NCBI GenBank assembly: GCA_965228855.1
Contig: CBDDIJ010000003.1
Span: forward strand, 2,240,001-2,304,000
Length of the DNA stretch: 64,000 nucleotides
Source: Candidatus Obscuribacterales bacterium
GTDB lineage: Bacteria; Cyanobacteriota; Vampirovibrionia; Obscuribacterales; Obscuribacteraceae
Reading direction: 5' to 3'
Position numbers and translations under genes: made by a program. Of this stretch, positions 19,447-64,000 are shown one piece after another. The notes below the pieces were generated by a model that was not told the DNA's origin, made no database searches, and saw nothing but the letters and a program-made list of their open reading frames with translations. The first letter of the stretch is position 1. Every line of letters starts with the position of its first letter.

Positions 19447-19884
19447 TCACTCAGTCTGCGCGGTCTTCGGATTCTTGATTTGATAGGTGTAGGTTGACGT
19501 GAACACGACGCGATTGCTGTCCGGTTTCAAATTAAACGCAAGAAACGGCATCGGAACTGCGCAAACGGTTTGAGTCTGTAATTGTATGACCCGCACATCC
19601 GCAGCGATATCGTCTTTAAAGGCGGTGTATTGGGGATGACTGATGAACGCACCGCCGTACCCACAGTTGTCCATTCCATGCCGCGCGGCACCTTGAACTG
19701 CTTCAGTCGGTTTCCCTTCGAGAGCGGCTCCGGCAGCCAGCGCTATTGAATCACGGCAGACCTTATCATTGTATGTCTTAGCGAGATACAGGATACAGGT
19801 GTTGGTAGCAAGTAGAGACATAATTACGAGCAAGAGAACTGCTACACCAAGCTCGAAAAGACCGTGACCGGAAGGGTTGCGCAT
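19447..19884 (-). CDS. TadE-like pseudopilin
   Basis: Class III signal G|HGLFE (Glu at +5) followed by a hydrophobic helix; similar to the N-domain of 57935..60520. Confidence 0.7.
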   Translation of the reverse strand: MRNPSGHGLFELGVAVLLLVIMSLLATNTCILYLAKTYNDKVCRDSIALAAGAALEGKPTEAVQGAARHGMDNCGYGGAFISHPQYTAFKDDIAADVRVIQLQTQTVCAVPMPFLAFNLKPDSNRVVFTSTYTYQIKNPKTAQTE

Positions 19885-50543: not shown

Positions 50544-51215
50544 ATGAGACTTAAATCCGGAAAGTTAGCAGGCGCAACGACCTTGGCACTTTCTTGCTTG
50601 TTAACGCTGACGTTTGTTCTGACCGGCTGCACGCCGCAGACAACTGAGAAAGCCAAGCCCGATCCGAACCAAGCTTTCATTGATAGCTTCTGCAAAGGCG
50701 AACCGGACATGACAGTCACTTTTCCGGAAGCAGAGTTTGCTAAAGCAAAGGAACTTCAGAAGCAGAAGAAACTTGACTCAGCGCAAAAACTTCTTCTGGA
50801 CAAACTCGAAGATGCGCGGAAGTCTGCAAGAGGCACCACCCAACTCGGTCAATACCTGACGCGCCTCAACAACATCTTTTTTGAAAGAGGCAACGACACT
50901 CAAGCAATAAAATACGGCGAAATTGCTTCCAAGATTTTCTACGATCAGCCCCTTGCCAAGCGTCCAATCGCTCCTTGGTTTGTAAACCTGCACTCCTATC
51001 TCGGTATGAGTTACGAGCGTATGGGCAAATATAAGGAAGCGGAACTGGAGTTCCAAAAGGCAATTCGGATTGCGACAAACGCACCGAGAGCTGAAGTAGC
51101 AGACGATTGGATGAGATTGTTGTACCAGCGTCTAGCAGCGTGCTTCGACGCACAGAAGCAGCCGGAAAAGGCGAAGAAGGTACGCGAATCGCTGAAGAAT
51201 TTGAAACGAGGATAG
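50544..51215 (+). CDS. TPR lipoprotein
   Basis: Lipobox LTG|C; TPR-like YLGMSYERMGKYKEAE..FQKAI. Confidence 0.8.
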   Translation: MRLKSGKLAGATTLALSCLLTLTFVLTGCTPQTTEKAKPDPNQAFIDSFCKGEPDMTVTFPEAEFAKAKELQKQKKLDSAQKLLLDKLEDARKSARGTTQLGQYLTRLNNIFFERGNDTQAIKYGEIASKIFYDQPLAKRPIAPWFVNLHSYLGMSYERMGKYKEAELEFQKAIRIATNAPRAEVADDWMRLLYQRLAACFDAQKQPEKAKKVRESLKNLKRG

Positions 51216-51869
51216 TTGGAAGCGGCAGAGGGCCACAAACTGTCAAAGAACGCTCGATTGCAGGAAACTCAGTCAGTCAGCGAAAGCGGATTTCAGTTCA
51301 CTGACCTTTTTTTCTCAAGAAAGCTCTGGCAGCGCATTCGCAAGCCGCTCATCAGCACCGGATTGTTTGTCATACTCTCGACATTCATCATCTATCTTCT
51401 TCTGCCCAATCTTGTTCTTGCGCGGCTTGTTGAGCCACTTCATAAGTTCATAGCCTTTTTCAACCTGGCACAGGGCTATGGAGTTTTCGCACCGAATCCG
51501 ACAACTAAGAACTCGCATATAGTCGGTGTCGTCTTCTACACCGATGGGTCTTCGAGACTCTACGAGTTCCCGCGGCTCGACAGGATTTCCATGACAAATA
51601 AGTTGTGGAAAGAGCGTTATCGCAAATTTCTGGAAGACAACATCCCACAAAAACGCAACGCGCATCTGGTTAACGACGTCGCCCGTTTTGTTGCCAGGGA
51701 AACCGATATATTCCCGAAAAACTCAAGCACGAGCAACAGACCGGAAACAGTCATGCTGCTCAATTATTACGCCGAAGCTCCACCGATTCATGCCCACAAA
51801 CATAGTCCGTCGCACTTCAACATGCGCGTGCTCTGCACTTATTCGGTGACCAGGGAAGATCTCCAATGA
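51216..51869 (+). CDS. SdpA/DUF5819-like membrane-anchored protein (paralog 1)
   Basis: One TM, then LAQGYGVFAP..DGS..LYEFPR..ERYRKF; ATGA overlap with the HTTM gene. Confidence 0.65.
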   Translation: MEAAEGHKLSKNARLQETQSVSESGFQFTDLFFSRKLWQRIRKPLISTGLFVILSTFIIYLLLPNLVLARLVEPLHKFIAFFNLAQGYGVFAPNPTTKNSHIVGVVFYTDGSSRLYEFPRLDRISMTNKLWKERYRKFLEDNIPQKRNAHLVNDVARFVARETDIFPKNSSTSNRPETVMLLNYYAEAPPIHAHKHSPSHFNMRVLCTYSVTREDLQ

Positions 51870-52798
51870 AAATTGCAGAAATAGCAGCGGGCTGGGATAG
51901 ATTTTTCTTTTCACCGGTGTCACCATATCCGGTGGCAGCTTATCGAATTCTACAAGGTTGTATTTACCTGCAATTCGCTCTGGCTCTCGGTCCCGACCTA
52001 CAAGTCTGGTACGGATATCCTGGAATCATTCTGGAAAGCACTTTGGCTGCCGACGGAATAAATAAACTGAATGTACTGAGTTACTACCACAACAACGAAT
52101 GGGTTCTGGCTGTTTGGCTCATCTTGATCGCGGCATCCATTTGCCTGACTATTGGCTTCCAGACTCGAATTGCATCGATTATTCTATTCACCATCCTTGT
52201 CACCTACTCAAACAGAAACGCATATCTATTCAATGCTGGCGACACTTATTTGCGTTCGGTTGCCTTTTGGCTCGTGTTCGCTCCAAGTGCAGAAGTCTGG
52301 TCAGTCGATAGCTGGTTGAAGAATCGAAAAAAGGCTCCTTTCGATCCACTGGTCAGCGCCTGGGTTTGGCGCGCCTTGCAGTTGCAGTTGTGCTTCGTTT
52401 ATTACTCCGCCTTTTACACCAAGACGAGCGGATGGTATTGGTCTGTCGGCGAGGCTGTCTACATAGCGTCCAGGTTCGAATCGCTATTCCGGCTTCCATT
52501 GCCGTTTACCTTCGATGACGCACTCCTTGCCAGCATATTCACGTTTGGAACTTTAGCAGTGGAAGCGGCGCTTTACACGCTCATCTGGGTAAAAGAACTG
52601 CGGTACTACGTCATCGCTCTGGGCACATGTCTACACCTTACCATCGATTGGTGCATGAGCATTCCAATGTTTGAATGGATGATGATTGTGTCATTTGTCC
52701 TTTTCATCGACTCGGTCGACATCACAAATTTTGTCGCAGCGATGAAGCGCTGGCTGAAGAGTCCGCTGAAGGTTCTTCAGACACCAACAAAAGCTTAG
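51866..52798 (+). CDS. HTTM domain (SdpB / vitamin K-dependent carboxylase-like) membrane protein (paralog 1)
   Basis: W..FFF.P, R...G, GFQTR, RN....NAGD, SVD, LQLQLC.VY, K.....W..G.AVY, E and HL.ID motifs. Confidence 0.85.
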   Translation: MKIAEIAAGWDRFFFSPVSPYPVAAYRILQGCIYLQFALALGPDLQVWYGYPGIILESTLAADGINKLNVLSYYHNNEWVLAVWLILIAASICLTIGFQTRIASIILFTILVTYSNRNAYLFNAGDTYLRSVAFWLVFAPSAEVWSVDSWLKNRKKAPFDPLVSAWVWRALQLQLCFVYYSAFYTKTSGWYWSVGEAVYIASRFESLFRLPLPFTFDDALLASIFTFGTLAVEAALYTLIWVKELRYYVIALGTCLHLTIDWCMSIPMFEWMMIVSFVLFIDSVDITNFVAAMKRWLKSPLKVLQTPTKA

Positions 52799-52803
52799 CG
52801 TCA

Positions 52804-53556
52804 CTATTTTGCTTCGCGTGGCGCGAAGACAAGCTCATTTGCGTAAAACTTCTGATTGAGTTCGAGTATCTTAGACAGCTCTTCTCGACCTTGTTCTCGG
52901 CCAGGACGCTCGCGCGCGAGTTCTTCAAGAAGCTGCTTGCAGCTATCGAAATCGCGCGTGCTGTTTTTCGAATAACTGGTGACAAGATTCGCGTTGAGCG
53001 GCTCGTACCGGTCGAACATCTCTGAGCGCAAGTAGCTGGCCACGCCCCGGTCGTTCAAAATCCGGGCACGAAGCAACTTTGCTTCGTACGAAGATTGAGA
53101 CTCCAGTGATTTTAGATTGAGAGTGTACTGCTTTATGGCCGCATCGATGTCCTTCAAACTCATATATAGGAATGCGAGTTTACTGCGAAGTTTAAGAAGC
53201 TCAGCCGGTTTCAAGCTAACGTCATCGAGCGATTTGACATAGTCACTAAGGAGTTCGCGAGCCTTAACTTCCTGCCCGGTATTTAAATGCGCAATTATGA
53301 GATCGGCGCGTATCAGGTCAATTGTTGGAATATCAGGCGGAACCTTACTTTCAGCCTTTTTCAGATCGAGAGTCAGTCGGTAGAGATCGTTGTTGGGCGC
53401 GACAACCTTGGACCTGCTCGTCCAATTTAAAACAACCACCATGGTCGTAAGCCAGACCAATCCCAACCAGACGGCAGCGCGGCCGAAGTCACCTGGCGTC
53501 AACCTAGACACCAGTTTTTCGATTGAAAGACGCTTCGTTTTTTTTGACTTCGCCAT
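52804..53556 (-). CDS. Membrane-anchored TPR-like protein
   Basis: N-terminal TM; LAFLY..LKD.DAA..QY and ARILNDRGV helical repeats. Confidence 0.7.
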   Translation of the reverse strand: MAKSKKTKRLSIEKLVSRLTPGDFGRAAVWLGLVWLTTMVVVLNWTSRSKVVAPNNDLYRLTLDLKKAESKVPPDIPTIDLIRADLIIAHLNTGQEVKARELLSDYVKSLDDVSLKPAELLKLRSKLAFLYMSLKDIDAAIKQYTLNLKSLESQSSYEAKLLRARILNDRGVASYLRSEMFDRYEPLNANLVTSYSKNSTRDFDSCKQLLEELARERPGREQGREELSKILELNQKFYANELVFAPREAK

Positions 53557-54044
53557 TTACCTATATATAGGTTGCTTCGCAGGAGGGAGCTAAAACATCT
53601 TGATACTGCTCGTGATACTAAGCATAGAGGCTGATTCAGTTTTGTAAAAATCTTTACAACAGCCAAAATAGACCGTAACGCCCCTCCCACAATCGATTCC
53701 CTGGAAAACTGAAATTCGTGAAGTGTGAAAATTGTTTGCGCAGTGGGCATGATAGTGATGTCTATTAGAAATGCTCATGCGCGATCCATCATGCATTTGG
53801 GTATACTCGATAGATCAGATAGACAGCCCAAACACAGCATCCTGTCTAAGCTTGACGCGATTGACATCTCAAAAAAGCGCGTGATAGGATTGAAATAACT
53901 CAGATTCCGTGGTGTCATTTGGCCTTGCGCTTGATGACATGTTTGCATCCGGTCCCTATAAGAGTTGTGCCAGGGAGCATAAAATACCGGAGGAGTTCTT
54001 ACTAAATCTTTTTTCTCTCAAGTACTTGTGGATAGTTTCTATTA

Positions 54045-54656
54045 ATGGCACGGTGGACCAAAAATATGACTCGTAGACGTTCATCAATAAAAAGACGTGG
54101 AAAGACCGGAGCTATGGCTGCCGAATACGTCGCGACCATGTACCTTTTGTTCATCTTTATGTTTTTCCCGATTCTTAATTTGGGTACAGTCGGACTGAAT
54201 GCATTCTTCCTCTGGTTTGCGACAAACTGCGCAGCCACAGTGGGAGCCAAATCACAGTGCTTCCAGCAAGCTGTGCAGATTCCATCAGGGACCGGTCCCT
54301 GGTATCCGGGCGCATATGATACCGCCCGAGCAAAGGCGACCGAGATCAGAAATATGTTCCCCGGTATCAGCTGGGTGGCAACAGCTACCAACCCTGAAGT
54401 CAAGGCGATTGCAGAACCTATCGACCCGGCGGCGGGACTGTCTCCCTATCAGCACATCGGACCCGGTGCATGGCCTGCCGGCGCTCCGCGCCCGGACCCG
54501 GATCAATATACTTTGCTTCTGCGTGTGACCATTAACGGCGCAGCCTCGCCACTGATCGTGGTGCCCTGGTTCAACGTACCGGGTCTGAGCAAGCCGATGC
54601 AACTTCAGATGGTGTCGCAAGCACAATTTGAGAACCCGCCTGGTCTGTTGTTCTAG
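54045..54656 (+). CDS. TadE-like pseudopilin
   Basis: Basic leader, G|AMAAE (Glu at +5), hydrophobic helix. Confidence 0.75.
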   Translation: MARWTKNMTRRRSSIKRRGKTGAMAAEYVATMYLLFIFMFFPILNLGTVGLNAFFLWFATNCAATVGAKSQCFQQAVQIPSGTGPWYPGAYDTARAKATEIRNMFPGISWVATATNPEVKAIAEPIDPAAGLSPYQHIGPGAWPAGAPRPDPDQYTLLLRVTINGAASPLIVVPWFNVPGLSKPMQLQMVSQAQFENPPGLLF

Positions 54657-54894: not shown

Positions 54895-57624
54895 ATGCTC
54901 AAACCACGAAAGATCCGTGATCAAAAAGGGGCTGCAGTGACTGGACTCGTCATTGCGCTTATGTTCTTCATACTCATGGCTGGCTTGTTCGCTTTTGACG
55001 CCAGCCGAGTTCAGATGGCCCAACGGGAATTGACGGCAACTTGCGACGCCGCGGCTCTTGCTGGAACAGCCATGTTGACGAGTTATGACGTAAGTAACGA
55101 CACAGGCCCACCCGCTTCAACGCAGCCGGCAGGAAGCAAACTGCTGGATGCGCAAAACAACTCTGGTGCTTATTCGTACAACATGTTCCTGATGGGCAAC
55201 GTGCTTGGAAAGTGGATTCGTCCGCAGACCGCGCTCGTATCCACAGTCGGACAATTGGGCACGACAACCGATGGCGAAGTCAAAGTTTGTATCGGTCTCG
55301 TCGACCCATTGAATGGATATTCATCGGTACCACCTGTGATACCAGGTAACGCAGCAGGCACCGCGATTGGTGTATACGCAGGGTATGGATATCACCCGGC
55401 GTTTATCTCATTTTTCGGTGTTGGTAACGTTGGTATCAGAGCATCATCGGTCGGCGGCTTGCCGCAGGTCGACGCGGTTCTCGTACTCGACCTTTCCGGA
55501 TCGATGGACGATCTGACGCCGGTAACGCTGGTGAAGCGTTATTGGGATGCGCACCGCGGTGCCAACATGCAGGTATCAACAGCCTACAATGTCACCCCTG
55601 GATACACCACTGCAGCTTACACGCAGCTGAGTACTTCAGGCGGTGTTCCGTCTCAAGTTGTCTATGATGAGCCGGACCCGAACAGAGGCTACAACGGTCC
55701 AGCCACCGACAACAGAGGTTGGACAGACGAGCGACACGTCGCCACTCCCCTGATTAACACCATGATGTCTGGCAACAGTGCATCACCTTACACGCATACA
55801 AATCCTCCAACTTATGCCACCGACCTGACGACTGCCGATCTGGCGTCACAATCAACCGGGGCAAGTTTGGTAAACGGCACGCCCGAGAAGAACGGTAGTC
55901 CCGATAATATTTTCAATCCGGACTTCGATGAGTTTCAGGGGCATGGCTGCGTGACCTATCTAGAGACCAGACACCCGAATGCAAACCAGAGCATTATCGA
56001 GTACGTCGGTCTGGACACAGCGACTTATCTGACCGGTACGTCGTTGAACGCACTTCCTCCGCAGAACCTCGGCTTCTCGGAGAAAGGGACTGTGTTGTCT
56101 GGTGACTCCACGATTGTTTTCAAAAACTATTTGAGACATTCGCCGGACAAAAATGACTACAACAGCGCTCCCGGTAACTGCCCCCTGATTAAGTCGGGAG
56201 TCGGGTCCGGAGTACAGACGATGTCCGGCTTCGGCTGGGTGACCTCAGGCGGCAGATGTTCGCCTTACAAGAACTACCTGACTGACCACCTTCACTATCC
56301 TCTGGCTCCAGCCAGCGGCATGGTCGGTGCGACGCTCAAGCCGCCCTACAATCACAGCGTTATCTATACGGATCTCGTTGTAAACTTCGGCGCTCCAACC
56401 AACGGTCAGAAGCCGATTCAACCGGTTTGGGGACCAAACATATTCCAGGCCGTCAACTATACATTCGGCGACTCGAGTGTTGAGGACGACTCTGTAATTC
56501 AGGGCAACTCATATAGTTTCCCGAACATCGCCGTGCTCGTTGAAGCGTCCAGAGGCAACCTTGATTCACCTGGAACAGGCAGCACAGGCAACTTCGATTC
56601 GACGGCGCTGCACAGAGGTTACGACCTCCGCGGCGGAGAAGGCACGTATCAGGCGTACTACTCCCCCAGTCTCACCGGGATGAATACGAACGCCGGACTC
56701 GTCCAACCTCAAGTGGGCTATCAACGAGCCTATCAACGACTGGCAATGTGGTATTCACAGCCAATCGCAACCACGCTAGATTCATGCGACCAGGCATTCT
56801 TCCAACGTCTGGCGGCTCTTACAGATTGCCGTTTCGGTCTCGTTGGATTCTCCGATCGCTGGACTCTCAGCGGCAACCCTGCTAACAGCGTTGCTTCAGC
56901 AAATACAGGTGTGTTCGGTTCATCCGCAAACTACACCGCAAGCGGTCCATCCGCTAACAGCTACTACTACGACATCAGCTTCACTGGCGTCGTGAACACA
57001 ACTCACGTCTGGGACGGACGGATCGGTCCCTCTGATGCATCTTGTGCGGTTCGACACGAATGTCGAGTGGACCAGAGCGCAGGCGGAGGTACGGGACAGG
57101 GGTTCAGGCTTCCCCGATTCCCACTTAACTCAAGCTTGAATAAGGCCGCATGTTTGCGAAACATGCAAAAGGGTTCTCCTTCCGGATCAACCTGGGCCTG
57201 GTCTAATCCGGACCACGGGGACGGACTGTACAACGGTCGACCGCTTAACGGCACAATGTGCTCAGAGGCGCTCGAAACAGCCCGACTCGCATTCCAAACA
57301 GCGCCGTACTCGATACGGCCCGGAAGTAAGCGCGCCATCATCTTCTTCACAGATGGTGTGCCGGTTCCACCTACTGAGGCAGGTCCTAGCGGCAACACAG
57401 CCGACGCTTGCCAGACAGACGGTATAGCCATCTTCTCGATTGGCTTGAACATGCTAGGAAATGGAGACCTTACAAACCAGCAAACTGCATTCCTCGGAAA
57501 CAGCAGTGGCGGTCTGTCTGGTAGAGCCAAGAACGGCGGTCGATTCTTCATGTGTAATGATGTGACCCAGGTTCAACAGGCGTTCTCCTCGATCGCACGC
57601 CGTCTGACGCAATCTCAGAAATAA
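54895..57624 (+). CDS. TadG-like pilus-tip protein: Tad N-domain + split vWA domain with a large insertion
   Basis: KG|AAVTG leader + TM, REL..TCDAAALAG (Tad motif), LVLDLSGSM MIDAS, later GLVGFS, IIFFTDG and IFSIG; GAGGAG upstream. Confidence 0.85.
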   Translation: MLKPRKIRDQKGAAVTGLVIALMFFILMAGLFAFDASRVQMAQRELTATCDAAALAGTAMLTSYDVSNDTGPPASTQPAGSKLLDAQNNSGAYSYNMFLMGNVLGKWIRPQTALVSTVGQLGTTTDGEVKVCIGLVDPLNGYSSVPPVIPGNAAGTAIGVYAGYGYHPAFISFFGVGNVGIRASSVGGLPQVDAVLVLDLSGSMDDLTPVTLVKRYWDAHRGANMQVSTAYNVTPGYTTAAYTQLSTSGGVPSQVVYDEPDPNRGYNGPATDNRGWTDERHVATPLINTMMSGNSASPYTHTNPPTYATDLTTADLASQSTGASLVNGTPEKNGSPDNIFNPDFDEFQGHGCVTYLETRHPNANQSIIEYVGLDTATYLTGTSLNALPPQNLGFSEKGTVLSGDSTIVFKNYLRHSPDKNDYNSAPGNCPLIKSGVGSGVQTMSGFGWVTSGGRCSPYKNYLTDHLHYPLAPASGMVGATLKPPYNHSVIYTDLVVNFGAPTNGQKPIQPVWGPNIFQAVNYTFGDSSVEDDSVIQGNSYSFPNIAVLVEASRGNLDSPGTGSTGNFDSTALHRGYDLRGGEGTYQAYYSPSLTGMNTNAGLVQPQVGYQRAYQRLAMWYSQPIATTLDSCDQAFFQRLAALTDCRFGLVGFSDRWTLSGNPANSVASANTGVFGSSANYTASGPSANSYYYDISFTGVVNTTHVWDGRIGPSDASCAVRHECRVDQSAGGGTGQGFRLPRFPLNSSLNKAACLRNMQKGSPSGSTWAWSNPDHGDGLYNGRPLNGTMCSEALETARLAFQTAPYSIRPGSKRAIIFFTDGVPVPPTEAGPSGNTADACQTDGIAIFSIGLNMLGNGDLTNQQTAFLGNSSGGLSGRAKNGGRFFMCNDVTQVQQAFSSIARRLTQSQK

Positions 57625-57693: not shown

Positions 57694-57934
57694 GCTTTGA
57701 ACCCAGCCCATCCTCCTTCGTCCGCCAGAAATTCCTGCAGGGGAAACCGTAAGCCGTGAAATCTTGGGGGTTTTGGGGAATTGTATTAGAGGCGGATAGT
57801 ATCGGCTTCGATAGCATCTGCTTGTCGACGGTCAACATCCCCAAATTGCCCATGTGTTGATACTTTTCACGTACACTTCACGTTCGCAATCTAGGATGTT
57901 AATGTAGGCAATTTCTCTTTTTTGGAGGAGTTCT

Positions 57935-60520
57935 GTGAATAACCAAAATCAGCGTCCAAACAGAAGAAAGAAAAATCTTCTGAAGCGCTTGAAAGGTATC
58001 ACCGCTATTGAACTCGCGGCAATCGTGTCGATTCTCATCGTCATTTGCGCCCTGACATTCAATATATGTATTCTCATATTCTCTGCGGATATGTGCGACC
58101 GGGCTTGCAGAGACTGCGCCCGAGCCGCCGGACAAATGTCCACTCCGAAGGAAGCGGTCGACGCCATGAACGCGTGTTTGCTGCATCACAAGACCTCAGG
58201 TGGTTTTGTGATTACGTCATTCAATGCAGAGCTTCTCGTCTACGAGGACTACATCGATCACAGTAACGATCCGAATCCTCCGGGTCCGCCTGCGATGCCA
58301 CCTCCGAACTCTTCTTACAATACCCAGACAACTACAGCGGATCCGCAAGTTCTTGCAGACCCGCTTCACCGTGTTCCGGCTCCGGTACTCGGTGGTTGCC
58401 CTGGTCCATTCGTAATGGTCCGGACAAATCTGACATCGCGGATTCCGGCACCGATCTTCTTTTTCGGTGCTCACTTCCAGGGCAATAGCGGAAACTTGAT
58501 GGACTTTTCGAGTGTGTACACGTTCCCAATTACGAACACACTCGGACCTCTTGCTGTAGCGCAAACCGGCTCCGACCCTAACCCGGGCGGACCGACCTCT
58601 ACAGGTACTACTGAACCCGTTATTGGTCAAACCACTTCCAATCCACAGGCCGGTCCTTCCGGTCCGTTGGGACCAGGCGGTCCTGGCGGTCCAGTAGGTC
58701 CCGGTGGTCCTCTAGGTCCTGGCGGTCCTAACGGTCCTGGCGGACCTCAAGGTCCTGGTGGACCTCAAGGTCCCGGCGGTCCTGAAGGTCCCGGCGGTCC
58801 TGGTGGTCCCCAAGGTCCTGGCGGTCCTGGTGGTCCCGGCGGTCCTGAAGGTCCCGGCGGTCCGGCTGGTCCTGGTGGACCTGGCGGTCCTGGCGGTCCT
58901 GAAGGTCCCGGTGGTCCCGGTGGTCCTGCCGGTCCCGGCGGTCCTGGTGGTCCTCTCGGTCCTGGTGGTCCTTCCGGTCCACTCGGTCCTGGCGGTCCCT
59001 TAGGTCCTGGCGGTCCTGGTGGTCCTGCTGGTCCTGGCGGTCCTAGCGGTCCTGGCGGTCCTGCCGGCCCCGGTGGTCCTAAAGGTCCTGAAGGACCTGG
59101 CGGTCCCGGTGGTCCTGGTGGTCCGGCCGGTCCTGGTGGTCCTAGCGGTCCTGGCGGTCCTGGTGGTCCGAAGGGTCCTGGCGGTCCTGGTGGACCGAAA
59201 GGTCCTGGCGGTCCTAAGGGTCCTAGTGGTCCCGGCGGTCCTGGTGGTCCTAAGGGTCCTGCCGGTCCTGGCGGTCCTTCCGGTCCTGGTGGTCCTAAGG
59301 GTCCTGGTGGACCTGGTGGTCCTTCCGGTCCTGGCGGTCCCGGCGGTCCTGGCGGTCCTGCTGGTCCTGGCGGTCCTTCCGGTCCTGGCGGTCCTGCTGG
59401 TCCTGGTGGTCCTTCCGGTCCTGGTGGACCTGGCGGTCCTTCCGGTCCTGGCGGTCCCGGCGGTCCTGGTGGTCCGAAGGGTCCTGGCGGTCCTTCCGGT
59501 CCCGGTGGTCCCGGTGGTCCTGGCGGTCCTGTAGGTCCCAATGGACCTAGCGGTCCCGGTGGTCCTGGCGGTCCTAAGGGTCCTGGTGGTCCTTCCGGTC
59601 CTGGCGGTCCTTCCGGTCCTGGCGGTCCTTCCGGTCCTGGTGGTCCTTCCGGTCCTGGTGGACCTGGCGGTCCTAAGGGTCCTGGTGGTCCTTCCGGTCC
59701 TGGCGGTCCTTCCGGTCCTGGCGGTCCTTCCGGTCCTGGTGGTCCTTCCGGTCCTGGTGGTCCGAAGGGTCCTAGCGGTCCCGGTGGTCCCGGCGGTCCT
59801 GGTGGCCCGAGCGGTCCTGGTGGTCCCGGCGGTCCTAAAGGTCCTTCCGGCCCTGGTGGTCCTGGCGGTCCTAAGGGTCCTGGTGGTCCTGGCGGTCCTA
59901 AGGGTCCTGGCGGTCCTAAAGGTCCTTCCGGTCCTGGCGGTCCTTCCGGCCCTGGCGGTCCTAAGGGTCCTGGTGGTCCTTCCGGCCCTGGTGGTCCTGG
60001 CGGTCCTAAGGGTCCTGGTGGTCCTTCCGGTCCTGGTGGTCCTTCCGGTCCTGGTGGTCCTTCCGGTCCTGGTGGTCCTTCCGGTCCTGGTGGTCCTTCC
60101 GGCCCTGGTGGTCCTTCCGGTCCTGGTGGTCCTGGTGGTCCTAGCGGCCCTGGTGGTCCTGGCGGTCCTAAGGGTCCTAGCGGTCCTGGTGGTCCTTCCG
60201 GCCCTGGTGGTCCTAAAGGTCCTAGCGGTCCTGGTGGTCCAAGCGGTCCTGGCGGTCCTTCCGGCCCTGGTGGTCCAAGCGGTCCTGGTGGTCCAAGTGG
60301 TCCTGGCGGTCCTTCCGGTCCTGGTGGACCTGGTGGTCCTGCCGGTCCTGGTGGTCCTGCCGGTCCTGGCGGTCCCGGTGGTCCCGGTGGTCCAAGCGGT
60401 CCTGCTGGTCCTGCAGGTCCAATGGGTCCCGGTGGTCCTCTCGGTCCTGCTGGTCCTCTCGGCCCTGGTGGCCCTGGTGGAGCAGCTGGTCCTGCGGGAA
60501 GTACCGCGCCAATCGGATAA
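57935..60520 (+). CDS. TadE-like pseudopilin fused to about 200 Gly-Pro-X triplets (collagen/silk-like)
   Basis: GGAGGA RBS before GTG; KG|ITAIE prepilin motif + [17 protein letters not shown] repeats from about aa 240 to near the C-terminus. Confidence 0.85.
58652..60505 (+). repeat. 9-bp-period coding repeat (GGN CCN NNN)n
   Basis: 1854 nt, about 206 Gly-X-Y triplets, almost all Gly-Pro-X (X = G, S, K, A, L, E, Q, V, N, M). Confidence 0.97.
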
Positions 60521-60551
60521 GCCAACGCCAACCGATAGACGAGAAGTACGT

Positions 60552-60597
60552 AAAAAAATTGAGGCTCCCCGGTTTGCTCCCGGGGAGACCTTTTTTT
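60552..60597. terminator. Bidirectional intrinsic terminator between convergent genes
   Basis: A7...CTCCCCGG-TTTGCTC-CCGGGGAG-ACC-T7. Confidence 0.8.
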
Positions 60598-60650
60598 ATG
60601 GAGATGTTTCTGAAAGACGAGAGCTAAGTCGCACCACCCTCGGTGCGCAA

Positions 60651-61256
60651 CTACTTCAACAAATCATTCCGTTTCACTCGATAAACGAAATAAGGAGTCT
60701 TGTCCCAGTGCCAGGGTAGATTTTGGAAGTGCACCCAATTTTTCGGATCAGGTTTTGGAACGTCAGCAAAGTTATAGATGTATGTGATGATTGACGGATT
60801 GTTTTTTGGATCTTCATTGCACCAAACCAGATACCGCGCCATGCTTGGAATGTACTTGCGTCCCCAGCGACCCGGCAAATACTCATAAAAAAGTGTTCGT
60901 CGTTTTTCATGAATGAAATGCTCCTGCTGACTGATCAAATTCATTCGCGGATACTCATAAAGTTTTTGAGTGCCATCCGCAAAGGTGATCACGGATAGCA
61001 TATGAAAGTTCGCTTTTCTCAAACCAGAGAACATCGTCCAGTTTTGTTCGAGACCAAAGAAACCCGCATAACGCCTTACGATCGGAATGAGCCAGGATTC
61101 ATTTCCTGGAAGATGCGAAAACGCAATCGCATTAGCGACGATAAGAAAAGTGACTATTAATCCGGAATAGATTTTCCGATCTCCGCTGCTCAAGGGCCTT
61201 TTCACCGGACCAAATTGGTCGGCACCTGCGACGGAAAAATTTTCGACTTCACCCAT
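60651..61256 (-). CDS. SdpA/DUF5819-like protein (paralog 2)
   Basis: [33 protein letters not shown] and NNP motifs. Confidence 0.65.
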
Positions 61257-61259
61257 ACT

Positions 61260-62237
61260 TCACATACCTGTGCTCTGAGCAGTCGAAGAGAGCGTCGAAG
61301 ATACTGATGTTTTCAGGGTTTTCACACGCATCAGATGGACTAGCGTTTCAAGATCCTCGGCACTAACGAACAAAATTAAGCTTGTGATGAAAAACCATTC
61401 AAACGGTCCAAGCCCGAAACAAAGATCCAGCCCGAGATGAAAAAGAAGTGCCGACAAAAGCATTGCGTATCTGATTCTTTTATTGGGAATCCAGAATACG
61501 AAAATAAAAGACGTCTCCAGCGCTAACGTCGACCAGGTCAGGATTTTCGAGACAGCCGGTAAATCAATAAATGGAGGTATCGCGATCCGAGTGTAGTCCA
61601 AAAGACGCGTTGCGTAATAAACGGCAGATCCATCTCGCCACTGCTCGCCGGCGAATTTATAAATCACGTTTACAAGATAAATCACACAAAGTTGGACTTG
61701 AATTACGCGCTGAGCCCATGGTGCATAGAGCTGGTCTGAGGAAGCCGGGTTAATCAAACAGTCGATGGATAGGCGTTTTCCACAAGGGGCAAAGATGAGA
61801 AACAAGCTGATTATTCTTGCGAAGTTATCTCCACCCATAAGCACGATCGGAAAATGATTGCACAAGGACAGGTAGCAAAGAAATAACATTAATGAACTAA
61901 ATCTGGTGGCAAGCCCAATCGTCACAAAGAATGCCATGAGGGCGGAAAAATATAGGAACCCAATTCGGAAGCCGTCTTCCGAAGGCAAAAGCAAAAGAAG
62001 GTCGAAGGCAGGACCACGATTCCACTCATTTAAATCGATGCTCGACGTAGGGAACACGGCATTGGCGCCAAAGAATAATAAATAATCTCTTCTAAACTGC
62101 ACTAATAAACTGAACAACATCACCGTACCGAAGCCGATCCGGAAGACGCTTACCGGAAGAGCGGATTGGGGATTAAACCAGAAGCTGTTCCATCTCGCGC
62201 AGATCTTCGAGCATAACAGTTTAAAGCGCGCTGTCAT
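61260..62237 (-). CDS. HTTM domain membrane protein (paralog 2)
   Basis: WNSFWF.P, FRIGFG, GLATR, GGD, LSID, IQVQLC.IY, K..GEQWRDGSAVYY and FHLGLD motifs. Confidence 0.85.
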   Translation of the reverse strand: MTARFKLLCSKICARWNSFWFNPQSALPVSVFRIGFGTVMLFSLLVQFRRDYLLFFGANAVFPTSSIDLNEWNRGPAFDLLLLLPSEDGFRIGFLYFSALMAFFVTIGLATRFSSLMLFLCYLSLCNHFPIVLMGGDNFARIISLFLIFAPCGKRLSIDCLINPASSDQLYAPWAQRVIQVQLCVIYLVNVIYKFAGEQWRDGSAVYYATRLLDYTRIAIPPFIDLPAVSKILTWSTLALETSFIFVFWIPNKRIRYAMLLSALLFHLGLDLCFGLGPFEWFFITSLILFVSAEDLETLVHLMRVKTLKTSVSSTLSSTAQSTGM

Positions 62238-62836
62238 CTCACACCGCCCCGCGACATCTCATGATGCCTTACAAAAAATGGCAGCTGAACTGTCCGATGA
62301 TCGATCTTACTGAAACTCATGTCCAACTGCTTCGTGTAGGTGGAGAATGATGGAACGTTCATCCCATTAAATGTAGGTTCTACAAGAACTGGCGGATTAT
62401 CGACATTCCAGTTAGCCCTTGCGAGGAACCGAGCCGTATCCGGCCAATATGCCGCATAATGAGGCTCGCTAACTCCGTCGACAACAAACTTGCGAAGCTG
62501 ATTTCTTTCGATGTTAGAGAACGAAAACTTTCGATTCTCCGGCCATTCATACAACTTGATGGAACCGTCTTTGAAGGTGATCAAGCATGTTGCGTATTGA
62601 TTCATTATTCGAATATCGGGACTAAACAAATTCCAGCGTTGCTTCAGCCCGAATAACAAGATAATCGGGTCAACATAAGGTTTCACACGATCTCTAATTT
62701 CGCCGGAGGGCGAAACTTGAATCAATACAATTGAAAAATATGCGACAATAATAAGACTGATAATAATGCGACCGACGCGCTGAATATCAGAGTTTTCCGC
62801 GTTTTGGGAATTATATGTAATGTGATTGTCATCCAC
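62234..62836 (-). CDS. SdpA/DUF5819-like protein (paralog 3)
   Basis: TM, FGLKQRWNLFSP, ITFKDGSIKLYEWP, LRKF, ARFLAR and DNPP; 4-nt overlap with the HTTM gene. Confidence 0.65.
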   Translation of the reverse strand: MDDNHITYNSQNAENSDIQRVGRIIISLIIVAYFSIVLIQVSPSGEIRDRVKPYVDPIILLFGLKQRWNLFSPDIRIMNQYATCLITFKDGSIKLYEWPENRKFSFSNIERNQLRKFVVDGVSEPHYAAYWPDTARFLARANWNVDNPPVLVEPTFNGMNVPSFSTYTKQLDMSFSKIDHRTVQLPFFVRHHEMSRGGVR

Positions 62837-62948: not shown

Positions 62949-63629
62949 ATGATGAGCAAAATTCCTGATGATAATTCGCCCAGCGTCGAGAAAGAATTTG
63001 ACTTTGCGGTTGAGAAAGAGCCGCCATCTAATTTCTGGAAACTGGTCGTTTCCGCATTCATGTTCACCTATGTAGCGTCTGTCGTCGTATGGTGTTTCGA
63101 TGACGTACCGTTCAAAAAAGAAATGGCGCCGCTGTCGCACTGGATTAATATTGCAGATGGTGGCGTTCAACATTGGAGTCTCTTTAGTCCGGACGTTCGT
63201 TACGTCATATATCACGAGACCGCGCTTGTTTCGTATAAAGACGGAACTATGAAGCTTTACGAGTTTCCCCGTATGCAAAAACTCAGTAACTGGGAAAAAT
63301 TCAAACACGAAAAATTGCGAAAGCTATTCAGCGATAATATTCCGTGGCCAGGCTACGAATCGTTCCTTCCGAACATCGCCCAGTTTCTTGCCGCAAGCAA
63401 TCAGGATCCGAAGAATCAACCTGCGATGGTTACGATGATCTTTAACTCCACACAAAATCCAAAGCCAGATCCCGATCACTGGAACTATCGTGACAATCTT
63501 CCTTTCCACAACGAGAAATTCGTCACTTTTCTCTACAGCGTGCGCGAAAACGATTTCATAAACGACGCGCAGAACTCCAAGCCCGATACGCATCGGCAAA
63601 GTAACTTACGGGTTCTCGACGCAAAATGA
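62949..63629 (+). CDS. SdpA/DUF5819-like protein (paralog 4)
   Basis: TM, GVQHWSLFSP, YKDGTMKLYEFPR, HEKLRK, PKPDP..W; ATGA overlap with the next gene. Confidence 0.65.
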   Translation: MMSKIPDDNSPSVEKEFDFAVEKEPPSNFWKLVVSAFMFTYVASVVVWCFDDVPFKKEMAPLSHWINIADGGVQHWSLFSPDVRYVIYHETALVSYKDGTMKLYEFPRMQKLSNWEKFKHEKLRKLFSDNIPWPGYESFLPNIAQFLAASNQDPKNQPAMVTMIFNSTQNPKPDPDHWNYRDNLPFHNEKFVTFLYSVRENDFINDAQNSKPDTHRQSNLRVLDAK

Positions 63630-64000
63630 ACGAGCCGAGCAAGAAAGAGAAATTTCTTAAGTGGTGGCAGAGTTTCTTCTTTGAGCCCGCGTCACCTACT
63701 CCAATTGCGTGGTTTCGAATCGCAATAGGAATCGTCACCCTCCAATGCCTCTGTATACACCTTCTTTCCGACTGGTCTCTGTACTTCGGCGATCATCCTC
63801 TGATTACTATAGAAACGATGATCGGAAAATATTGGAGATATGATCCGTATTTTGATCTGATGCTTCTTTTGCCATCTCAAGAAATTTGGCGATGGTATTT
63901 CTTCTGGGCAACAGTCGTATTTGCGACGATGATGACATTCGGTTTATTCACGCGATTCAGTTCTGTAGCGACATTTCTGTGCATGATGTCGTTGCAGCAT
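63626..64000 (+). CDS. HTTM domain membrane protein (paralog 3), truncated by the window edge
   Basis: Own translation from ATG 63626: MNEPSKKEKFLKWWQSFFFEPASPTPIAWFRIAIG...LYFG...FDLMLLLPS...GLFTRFSS..., collinear with paralogs 1 and 2; absent from the supplied ORF track. Confidence 0.85.
   Translation, partial: MNEPSKKEKFLKWWQSFFFEPASPTPIAWFRIAIGIVTLQCLCIHLLSDWSLYFGDHPLITIETMIGKYWRYDPYFDLMLLLPSQEIWRWYFFWATVVFATMMTFGLFTRFSSVATFLCMMSLQH

Follow-up and report, generated by a model that had tools for sequence, protein, structure and literature searches.

What is a pilin doing with a tail of about 200 consecutive Gly-Pro-X triplets, how could such a tail be organised, and why do genes related to the vitamin K-dependent carboxylase flank it? 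These questions are raised by a gene located in a stretch of 64,000 nucleotides (hereafter the window) from Candidatus Obscuribacterales bacterium (GenBank assembly GCA_965228855.1, contig CBDDIJ010000003.1, positions 2,240,001 to 2,304,000, forward strand). A first-pass annotation of its sequence had recognised a pseudopilin with a Gly-Pro-X (GPX) tail but had overlooked its predicted 1:1:1 tip context, the interchangeable tails of its sister proteins and the flanking pairs of HTTM and DUF5819-like genes. The present analysis points to a real and conserved variant of the Tad pilus tip, a pilin with a 200-triplet GPX tail that is genetically tied to orphan enzymes resembling the vitamin K carboxylase, and this variant is apparently undescribed. 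Our literature search, whose coverage left most subscription journals outside, found no description of a GPX-tailed pilin nor of HTTM genes beside pilins.

The gene consists of 861 open codons and encodes a prepilin motif (G|ITAIE, residues 21|22-26), a TadE-like head and a GPX tail in the same frame, as initially annotated. The tail includes 203 uninterrupted GPX triplets (residues 240-848): 111 GPG, 42 GPS, 18 GPK, 13 GPA, seven GPL, four GPE, three GPQ, two GPV, two GPN and one GPM. The total Gly-X-Y run reaches 206 triplets and is followed by APIG and the stop codon alone, i.e., by no C-terminal domain. The tail contains 52% Gly and 33% Pro, four Glu and no Asp. Its composition is zoned in the way first reported, with E (triplets 15-49), Q (11-18) and L (2-39) early, K in the middle (48-174) and L (199-201) and M (197) at the end. 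The repeat is Pro-rich throughout, as had been stated, but Pro occupies every third residue (position 2 of the triplet) and not every second. The length of about 175 nm calculated from 0.29 nm per residue is arithmetically right (174 nm), but this value is the rise of a triple helix; the tail would measure 189 nm as a polyproline II (PPII) chain and 219-231 nm if fully extended (the rises of 0.31 and 0.288 nm per residue are published values). The tract is much longer than chance would produce, as the next-longest Gly-X-Y run of the genome has 14 triplets (six frames, 8.2 Mb, the gene's own antisense frame excepted). Three RNA libraries provided contigs over the head (~98-99% identity), two of these contigs continuing towards the repeat; they are no proof of transcription, and the non-coverage of the upstream HTTM pair carries no meaning.

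This architecture is not common, the answer to a question that the first-pass annotation had raised, but is a trait of one family. Among 107 genomes of Obscuribacterales, 44 have a match to the head at E <1e-30 and 46 have the ten-triplet GPX pattern. Of the family's 104 genomes, 46 contain the alternating GPG-GPX pattern, as against one (a short run) of 297 others sampled from the class. A partial scan of metagenomes (11 of 64 parts, 122 loci) found at least 30 alternating GPG-GPX triplets in 10 loci; eight were assigned to the GPX pilin family by head, linker or flanking genes or, for one of these eight, by tail composition alone. A word-indexed protein search with the full-length query gave no match among 545 candidates, which is no evidence of absence since the collections mostly hold truncated forms; a search of these collections for longer proteins found two only (397 and 422 aa). 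A profile search of 1.84 billion representatives gave 212 matches, of which the best 150 all have at most 397 aa; for the same reason, this does not speak for absence either. Two metagenomic loci (L255 and L273) carry high-GC lipoprotein-like proteins with 23-50 GPT/GPG triplets and then a non-repetitive domain, which are unrelated to the pilin family.

Forty stretches around the best matches to the head were fetched and provided 21 complete GPX proteins, including that of the window; ten other GPX rows were not used because they are interrupted by contig ends, N runs or a frame break. All 21 proteins carry one unbroken Gly-X-Y run of 71-212 triplets. Over their 3,485 triplets, the first-position Gly is never replaced and the Pro is replaced 39 times (3,446 Pro). 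The Y position is occupied by G (n = 1,754; 50%), S (668; 19%), A (478; 14%), K (271; 8%), L (108) and E (8) but never by D, and G, S and A together amount to 83%. Non-Gly Y residues stand next to each other less often than expected (421 adjacent pairs against 855), and the hydrophobic ones are concentrated at the tract ends (20% and 12% in the end tenths, 1-4% inside). In the heads, T2 and E5 of the prepilin motif are invariant (30 of 30 aligned heads).

The tail is a swappable module among pilins, because different tails are found on the same head and GPX tails are found on another TadE family. Related heads carry Ser/Thr/Gly-, PT-, poly-S/P- or QASS-rich tails in seven cases and no tail in four. 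In the tree of 44 heads, the GPX forms cluster and one QASS form is nested within them, the deeper order being unsure owing to long branches. The second, different TadE family has [12 protein letters not shown] tails of 83-84 triplets in genomes G024 and G030 and shorter GPX tails in G032, G034 and G042. Five orphan pilins of this other family have GPG/GPS/GPA tails with a period of three triplets and no HTTM neighbour (L175:8651-10030, L176:8151-9518, L177:9763-10872, L178:9272-10112 and L075:6174-6911). The GPX pilin gene is also tandemly duplicated in three loci (L074, L077 and L096), each encoding two tails that differ in composition; the L077 duplication takes in the TadG partner.

Which complex does the head belong to? 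All the hallmarks of prepilins are present (basic leader, Gly at -1, Glu at +5 and hydrophobic helix). Residues 21-63 match Pfam TadE (E 0.0009-0.006) with 19.8 bits, below the curated cut-off of 22.9. The head model (predicted local distance difference test, pLDDT, of 71) has two helices (3-45 and 50-64) and three strands. Its matches to pilin folds are weak (Z 4.7-5.7): GspK (Z 5.7, root-mean-square deviation 3.5, 92 residues aligned) and PilX (Z 5.7, deviation 3.6, 88 aligned) are tied with unrelated folds. Foldseek found nothing at E 0.001 with this model; the nearest ESM Atlas clusters are TadE (0.85-0.87) and were taken as leads only. The gene order TadE-like pilin, TadG/VWA pilin and GPX pilin is conserved across orthologous loci. 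A Tad core (CpaB, CpaF ATPase, TadB/C-like proteins and A24 peptidase) is encoded elsewhere in the genome (G000:C5:1516795-1525024). When modelled together, the heads of the three pilins reached 0.63, the best of three controls 0.23, with a contact agreement between runs of at least 87% and a partner pLDDT of at least 62; the mark used for complexes is attained by 116 of 157 solved pairs and two of 215 mismatched pairs. The score may pass through likeness to solved pilin trimers, and it thus supports binding without showing it. Homologues of TadE, TadF and TadG are predicted as heterotrimers, as reported for the Myxococcus Tips in the available text of PMC12075869. It is well supported that the head would join its TadE-like and TadG/VWA neighbours in a 1:1:1 trimer at the pilus tip, which would give one tail per tip. 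The display on a pilus that had been proposed from the sequence is likely in view of this conserved context, of the Tad core and of the trimer model. The genome encodes at least 31 TadE/TadG-like open reading frames (ORFs) in many scattered cassettes and yet a single Tad core; one orphan TadE-like gene lies inside the window (19447-19884, minus strand).

As for the tail itself, we favour an extended PPII fibre of ~190 nm whose Gly face would mediate a side-by-side association with other tails or with itself. An ordered PPII assembly is preferred to a silk-like coil because the register is strict and the Gly invariant, and (Pro-Gly-Gly)n reportedly assembles into double-layered PPII sheets (bioRxiv 10.1101/2023.11.25.568672). 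Several points weigh against such an assembly. AlphaFold was uninformative on 180 tail residues (pLDDT 53, predicted template modelling score 0.13); Lys, at 8% of the Y positions, could not be buried in a sheet; and natural PPII bundles are described, in the available text of the same preprint, as short helices joined by loops, which have no counterpart in the unbroken GPX register. Moreover, the Ser/Thr-, PT- or QASS-rich tails of the sister proteins are devoid of Gly register, so that ordered zipping is not required for the general role of the cassette.

The tail could instead be a disordered tether at the tip, elastomeric or acting as an entropic brush, and its register a by-product of 9- and 18-nt duplication. 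Its high Gly and Pro content without any confident fold, its variable length, the single chain predicted per tip and the replacement of the GPX tail by S/T-, PT-, poly-P- or QASS-rich tracts on the same head all agree with this. However, an elastomer would not need an invariant Gly, and the first-position Gly is never replaced whereas the Pro is, while Y varies freely; in addition, hydrophobic Y residues are conserved at both tract ends, and GPGG never precedes any residue but P. We therefore consider a disordered tether unlikely, without regarding it as far-fetched. Of the elastomeric or PPII fibre envisaged by the first-pass annotation, the PPII half is thus the favoured one and the elastomeric half is weakened by the invariance of Gly over the 3,485 triplets. 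P follows the GPGG motifs in 110 of 110 cases, which imposes a strict period of three or six and not the period of five of flagelliform silk.

Gly at every third residue is also the one absolute rule of collagens, and it holds here across 206 triplets. A conventional bacterial collagen-like protein would be trimerised via its pilin heads, some type IV minor pilins such as CofB being homotrimeric, and would form a 175-nm triple helix of low stability. Consistently, prokaryotic collagens typically have Pro at X (PMC3368898) and Gly-rich strands are reported to be able to form a triple helix when clamped (PMC13673506). However, the protein has no apparent clamp and is devoid of a C-terminal trimerisation domain, its head is predicted in a heterotrimer, and its Y positions include 50% Gly and hardly any Glu/Asp-Lys pairs, in contrast to the E. 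coli prophage collagens as described in the available text of PMC3368898. The GPX protein has no match to Pfam Collagen (PF01391) at E 0.1, whereas a neighbour protein with GPT repeats matches it at 2e-35. The predominance of G, S and A at Y is atypical of bacterial collagens, where charged residues, Thr and Gln are usual, and Gly and Ser at this position are poor triple-helix formers according to host-guest data. Since a single chain per tip is predicted and half of the Y residues are Gly, an ordinary homotrimeric collagen appears distinctly improbable, in agreement with the initial view that this is not a normal bacterial collagen.

The PPII fibre that we favour is encoded amid three HTTM genes and four genes of a small single-pass DUF5819-like protein, which make up three pairs and one additional DUF5819-like gene (Table 1). 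The flanking HTTM domains exceed the Pfam cut-off, and an HTTM profile matches the human gamma-glutamyl carboxylase (GGCX) at E 1e-16; a single HTTM protein used as query found no PDB sequence. They share invariant K194, W200 and F279, which by spacing appear to correspond to K189, W195 and F273, the residues lining the predicted menaquinone pocket of DUF5819-HTTM in the available text of a preprint (bioRxiv 10.64898/2026.08.19.745780). The same text models the DUF5819-HTTM pair as a split carboxylase, leaves its substrate open and likens it to MloH, an enzyme that alpha-carboxylates Asp. HTTM proteins are reported to be needed for SDP maturation and are implicated in linaridin dehydration (PMC13343845, PMC5719810, PMC9927463, bioRxiv 10.1101/2020.07.09.196543), and linaridins contain D-residues (PMC10125368). 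The likeness of the small partner to DUF5819 is distant: seven of the 31 small partner proteins match PF19136 (DUF5819) at E up to 1 (best 8e-4), and our own profile of them matches two of four annotated DUF5819 proteins (1e-6 and 2e-5). The SdpB match scored 53 bits against a cut-off of 178, no SdpA match was found, and no precursor peptide was seen among the mapped ORFs of the locus (at least 110 aa). The genome encodes genes of the futalosine pathway and a VKOR homologue; no classical menD or menB over the cut-off was found in it. In Bacillales, the same enzyme pair adjoins small exported precursor-like peptides in four of four regions read. In Bacillales plasmids (L191, L193, L194 and L195), DUF5819 and HTTM/DCC1 genes adjoin exported precursor-like peptides of 100-140 aa, possibly undescribed SDP-like bacteriocin clusters.

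From gene neighbourhood, the tail is likely the substrate of these pairs, since they adjoin tracts across the order and are absent beside tail-less cassettes. An HTTM gene is present in the fetched stretch for all 27 GPX genes in cassettes (two in L074), for five of seven cassettes with other low-complexity tails (one of them cut by a contig end) and for none of four tail-less cassettes. Among the 31 TadE/G-like ORFs of the genome, the GPX pilin is the only long-tailed protein, and only the three of its cassette lie within 3 kb of an HTTM gene (the next at 31.9 kb). Tracts of G/S/T/P/A/N of at least 45 aa were found at 27 of 40 further HTTM loci, chosen from the HTTM match list and mostly from genera without the head (one of the 27 is the end of a GPX pilin orthologue), versus 56 of 545 15-kb windows of the genome itself. 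These tracts, namely (GPT)n, (SPT)n, (PT)n, poly-Pro, (TGG)n, (GTS)n and S/T runs, are carried by pilins, lipoproteins and large secreted proteins. As they include Pro-free and Ser/Thr-free types and the GPX tail is near acid-free, a reaction at C-alpha independent of the side chain would be the simplest common chemistry. Gamma-carboxylation of Glu in the tail was considered and is unlikely, with eight Glu and no Asp among 3,485 Y positions.

Other HTTM loci illustrate the variety of the neighbouring genes. A second HTTM/DUF5819-like pair of the genome (G000:C2:2523083-2526855, i.e., L186:4084-7856) has as neighbours a TadG-like gene of 547 aa and a lipoprotein-like ORF of 171 aa, the Cys of which is directly followed by a GP/GPT tract, and this trio recurs in seven loci (L125, L126, L136, L139, L143, L159 and L160) with GPT, GPR or GTS tracts. 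A frameshift joining the TadG-like gene to the GP-tract ORF behind it was rejected, the small ORF being separate in relatives too. In seven other loci (L124, L130, L131, L133, L134, L144 and L149), HTTM pairs have large secreted proteins as neighbours, whose (SPT)n, (GPT)n or (TGG)n stalks are at most ~315 residues long; since G, S, N and H interchange before Pro, a collagen fold is excluded for these stalks.

Some data weigh against the tail being the substrate. None of the nine orphan GPX pilins (four orphan copies and five of the other TadE family) has an adjacent HTTM gene, HTTM is present in 101 of the 107 genomes versus 46 for the GPX pattern, 13 of the 40 HTTM loci and the Ralstonia pair have no tract, and the genome has two further HTTM pairs without adjoining tract. 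Furthermore, the HTTM loci are kin by descent and not independent, and the Asn-His (NNH) of GGCX aligns with nsGD in these HTTM proteins, so that the chemistry may differ from that of GGCX. With the tail still at the tip, the pairs might act elsewhere (on the Cys-rich heads, the VWA pilin or lipids), or the real modification might be an O-glycosylation by downstream membrane proteins. In addition to the orphan pilins, this possibility is consistent with the DCC1-like thiol-disulfide domain of one HTTM protein and with two large membrane proteins encoded behind the locus in several genera, which look like GT-C glycosyltransferases by eye, without Pfam hit. However, the tail-less cassettes have the same Cys motif and VWA partner and yet lack HTTM neighbours, the pairs accompany low-complexity tracts on unrelated architectures, and some tails are nearly devoid of Ser and Thr (five Ser in 252 triplets in L067). 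We therefore hold an action elsewhere, or O-glycosylation, to be scarcely probable.

Finally, that the repeat is an assembly expansion, or that the real gene is a Gly-Pro-Pro (GPP) collagen on the antisense strand, is next to impossible: although the array is a tandem repeat and a 588-aa antisense ORF reads as a GPP-rich collagen, exact repeats inside the array do not exceed 98 nt and 39 distinct 9-mers are used, the gene of a second species (G043, 95.4% identity across 14.6 kb) also has 2,586 nt and differs from it by 64 substitutions, of which 49 fall on third codon positions, and the GPX codon pattern is its own reverse complement (forward and reverse counts are equal), which makes the antisense frame automatic, this frame containing two stops here and 0-15 among orthologues. 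Because independent assemblies agree, the expansion that the first-pass annotation had named as fatal to its reading is ruled out. Any (Gly-Pro-X)n gene yields a Gly-Pro-Y frame on the opposite strand, in the present case a convincing false GPP collagen, and is thereby a trap for gene callers.

We propose, tentatively and at somewhat less than an even chance for the whole, that the pilin head with its GPX tail is one subunit of a three-protein Tad tip, that the tail forms a PPII fibre of ~190 nm zipping along its Gly face, and that it is modified in the periplasm by the HTTM/DUF5819 pairs. This scenario starts from the sequence, its conservation, the gene order and the Tad core elsewhere in the genome, all of which were observed. 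Very probably, from what is known of the family and with the support of the model, the leader would be cut after Gly21 and the head would enter the tip with the TadE-like and TadG/VWA pilins, each in a single copy. Since each tip would have a single chain and no trimerisation domain is apparent, the tail would not fold as a self-contained collagen; slightly more plausibly than otherwise, it would form PPII layers resembling poly(Pro-Gly-Gly) or occasional triple helices with the tails of neighbouring pili, or fold back, and would serve as a tether of long reach, adhesive or cohesive. As long as the pilin remains anchored in the membrane, a menaquinol-type chemistry of the HTTM/DUF5819 pairs would, with fair probability, remove a C-alpha proton of the tail. 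The outcome that we think most likely is an L-to-D epimerisation of Ser, Ala and Lys at Y, which would become glycine mimics; alpha-carboxylation or Ser dehydration are the alternatives. In the case of linaridin CypH/CypL, the HTTM enzyme itself is reported to be the epimerase. More generally, it is conceivable but rather doubtful that the fibres of Obscuribacterales at pilus tips and on the surface, low-complexity polymers of ribosomal origin (GPX, SPT, PT, poly-Pro and S/T), are hypermodified on their backbone by dedicated membrane enzymes resembling the vitamin K carboxylase, for example with D-residues in place of the Ser, Ala and Lys of GPX, so that the GPX chain would behave as natural poly(Gly-Pro-Gly).

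Table 1. Features of the GPX pilin locus in the window
Feature	Position	Strand	Basis or remark
TPR protein, lipoprotein-like N terminus, conserved in locus	50544..51215	+	
DUF5819-like single-pass membrane protein, pair 1	51216..51869	+	profile comparison
HTTM-domain membrane protein, pair 1	51866..52798	+	Pfam HTTM E 3.3e-15
Membrane-anchored TPR-like protein, conserved in locus	52804..53556	-	
Second TadE-like minor pilin, predicted tip partner	54045..54656	+	prepilin motif, conserved order, complex model
TadG-like minor pilin, split VWA domain, predicted tip backbone	54895..57624	+	Pfam Tad E 6.7e-7 over cut-off, VWA weak
GPX pseudopilin gene, 861 aa	57935..60520	+	GTG start, Shine-Dalgarno GGAGGAG at 57924-57930
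Basic 21-aa prepilin leader, Gly-final, predicted cleavage G|ITAIE	57935..57997	+	G|xTxxE in orthologues
TadE-like pilin head: long N-terminal helix, second helix, three strands	57998..58549	+	weak Pfam TadE; model
Variable P/T/S/G linker	58550..58651	+	
203 uninterrupted Gly-Pro-X triplets	58652..60478	+	Gly-X-Y run on to 60505
Antisense shadow frame, Gly-Pro-Pro collagen-like, no gene	58765..60531	-	ORF list, stop counts
Intrinsic-terminator-like hairpin with T run	60565..60598	+	consensus match only
DUF5819-like protein, pair 2	60651..61256	-	profile comparison
HTTM-domain protein, pair 2	61260..62237	-	Pfam HTTM E 1.1e-14; SdpB family E 3.8e-14, below cut-off
Additional DUF5819-like protein	62234..62836	-	profile comparison
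DUF5819-like protein, pair 3	62949..63629	+	profile comparison
HTTM + DCC1-like protein, pair 3, 443 aa, extends beyond window end	63626..64000	+	

Two observations concern the surroundings of the locus. A TPR gene of ~240-260 aa that is present in most orthologous loci is missing here (53557-54044) as well as in G043, G045 and G046. Just past the window end, a conserved cluster (L185:2736-14999) that trails the locus in several genera encodes two large membrane proteins that have no Pfam match and resemble glycosyltransferases by eye, two further membrane proteins that are paralogues, three NAD-dependent epimerase/dehydratases and Mpo1-like, GH3-family and enolase-superfamily proteins.

This pilin provides a natural version, ~200 triplets long, of poly(Gly-Pro-Gly), which has mostly been known as a synthetic peptide polymer, and allows a direct test of triple helix versus PPII sheet versus coil for Gly-rich Gly-Pro-X chains. 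It also extends the diversification of Tad tips from globular domains to polymer tails swapped between pilins. Gene linkage offers candidate substrates for the bacterial DUF5819-HTTM enzymes, which are left open in the available text of a 2026 preprint (10.64898/2026.08.19.745780). If the proposed modification is true, it would name substrates for a widespread family of orphan enzymes, add a new substrate class to the family related to the vitamin K-dependent carboxylase and bring a chemistry typical of RiPPs (peptides made by ribosomes and modified after translation) to hundreds of sites of a structural protein. The escape from Pfam collagen surveys and the false GPP-collagen antisense ORF may explain why such pilins went unnoticed.

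Several known systems resemble parts of this locus. The ruffles of Bacillus endospore appendages are collagen-like Gly-X-Y tip fibrils on a pilus-like filament; they differ in that no type IV system is involved and that they form trimers with a globular domain at the C terminus. Flagelliform silk and elastin share a very high Gly and Pro content and GPGG motifs, silk repeats being GPGGX pentapeptides; unlike them, the GPX tail has a strict period of three or six and is devoid of cross-linking or terminal assembly domains. Scl and BclA are, with EPclA/B, the bacterial collagen-like proteins that come closest for comparison. The bacterial and phage collagen-like EPclA/B (PMC3368898) have an unbroken Gly-X-Y run, Pro at X and a surface display in common with the GPX pilin; unlike these proteins, as far as described in the available text, the latter has Pro in 99% of its X positions and Gly in 50% of its Y positions, hardly any acidic residues, a pilin anchor, no apparent trimerisation domain and no Pfam Collagen match. 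The poly(Pro-Gly-Gly) sheets and natural Gly-rich PPII bundles (bioRxiv 10.1101/2023.11.25.568672) share Gly-Pro-Gly as the main triplet and a small third residue; in contrast to the short helices and loops of natural bundles in the available text, the register is unbroken over 200 triplets and half of the Y residues are Ser, Ala or Lys. The tips of Tad (type IVc) pili formed by TadE, TadF and TadG, such as KilLMN of Myxococcus (PMC12075869), also rely on a cluster of three minor pilins that have prepilin motifs, on a TadG-like backbone of large size and on a predicted 1:1:1 trimer, with several paralogous cassettes per genome and variable C-terminal extensions. Unlike the Tips presented in the available text, the extension is here a 610-residue GPX polymer on a small pilin and not a globular one, and HTTM/DUF5819-like genes flank the cassette. 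Lastly, SdpA/SdpB, linaridin LinG/LinH-LinL, DUF5819-HTTM, MloH and human GGCX share with the flanking pairs an HTTM domain with Lys, Trp and Phe, a small membrane-anchored partner, the HTTM-DCC1 fusion and a location beside the gene of an exported substrate. Their known substrates are short peptides, an intermediate of non-ribosomal peptide synthesis or Glu-rich domains, whereas the candidate substrate found here is a structural tail of 600 residues with four Glu and no Asp, accompanied by three paralogous pairs.

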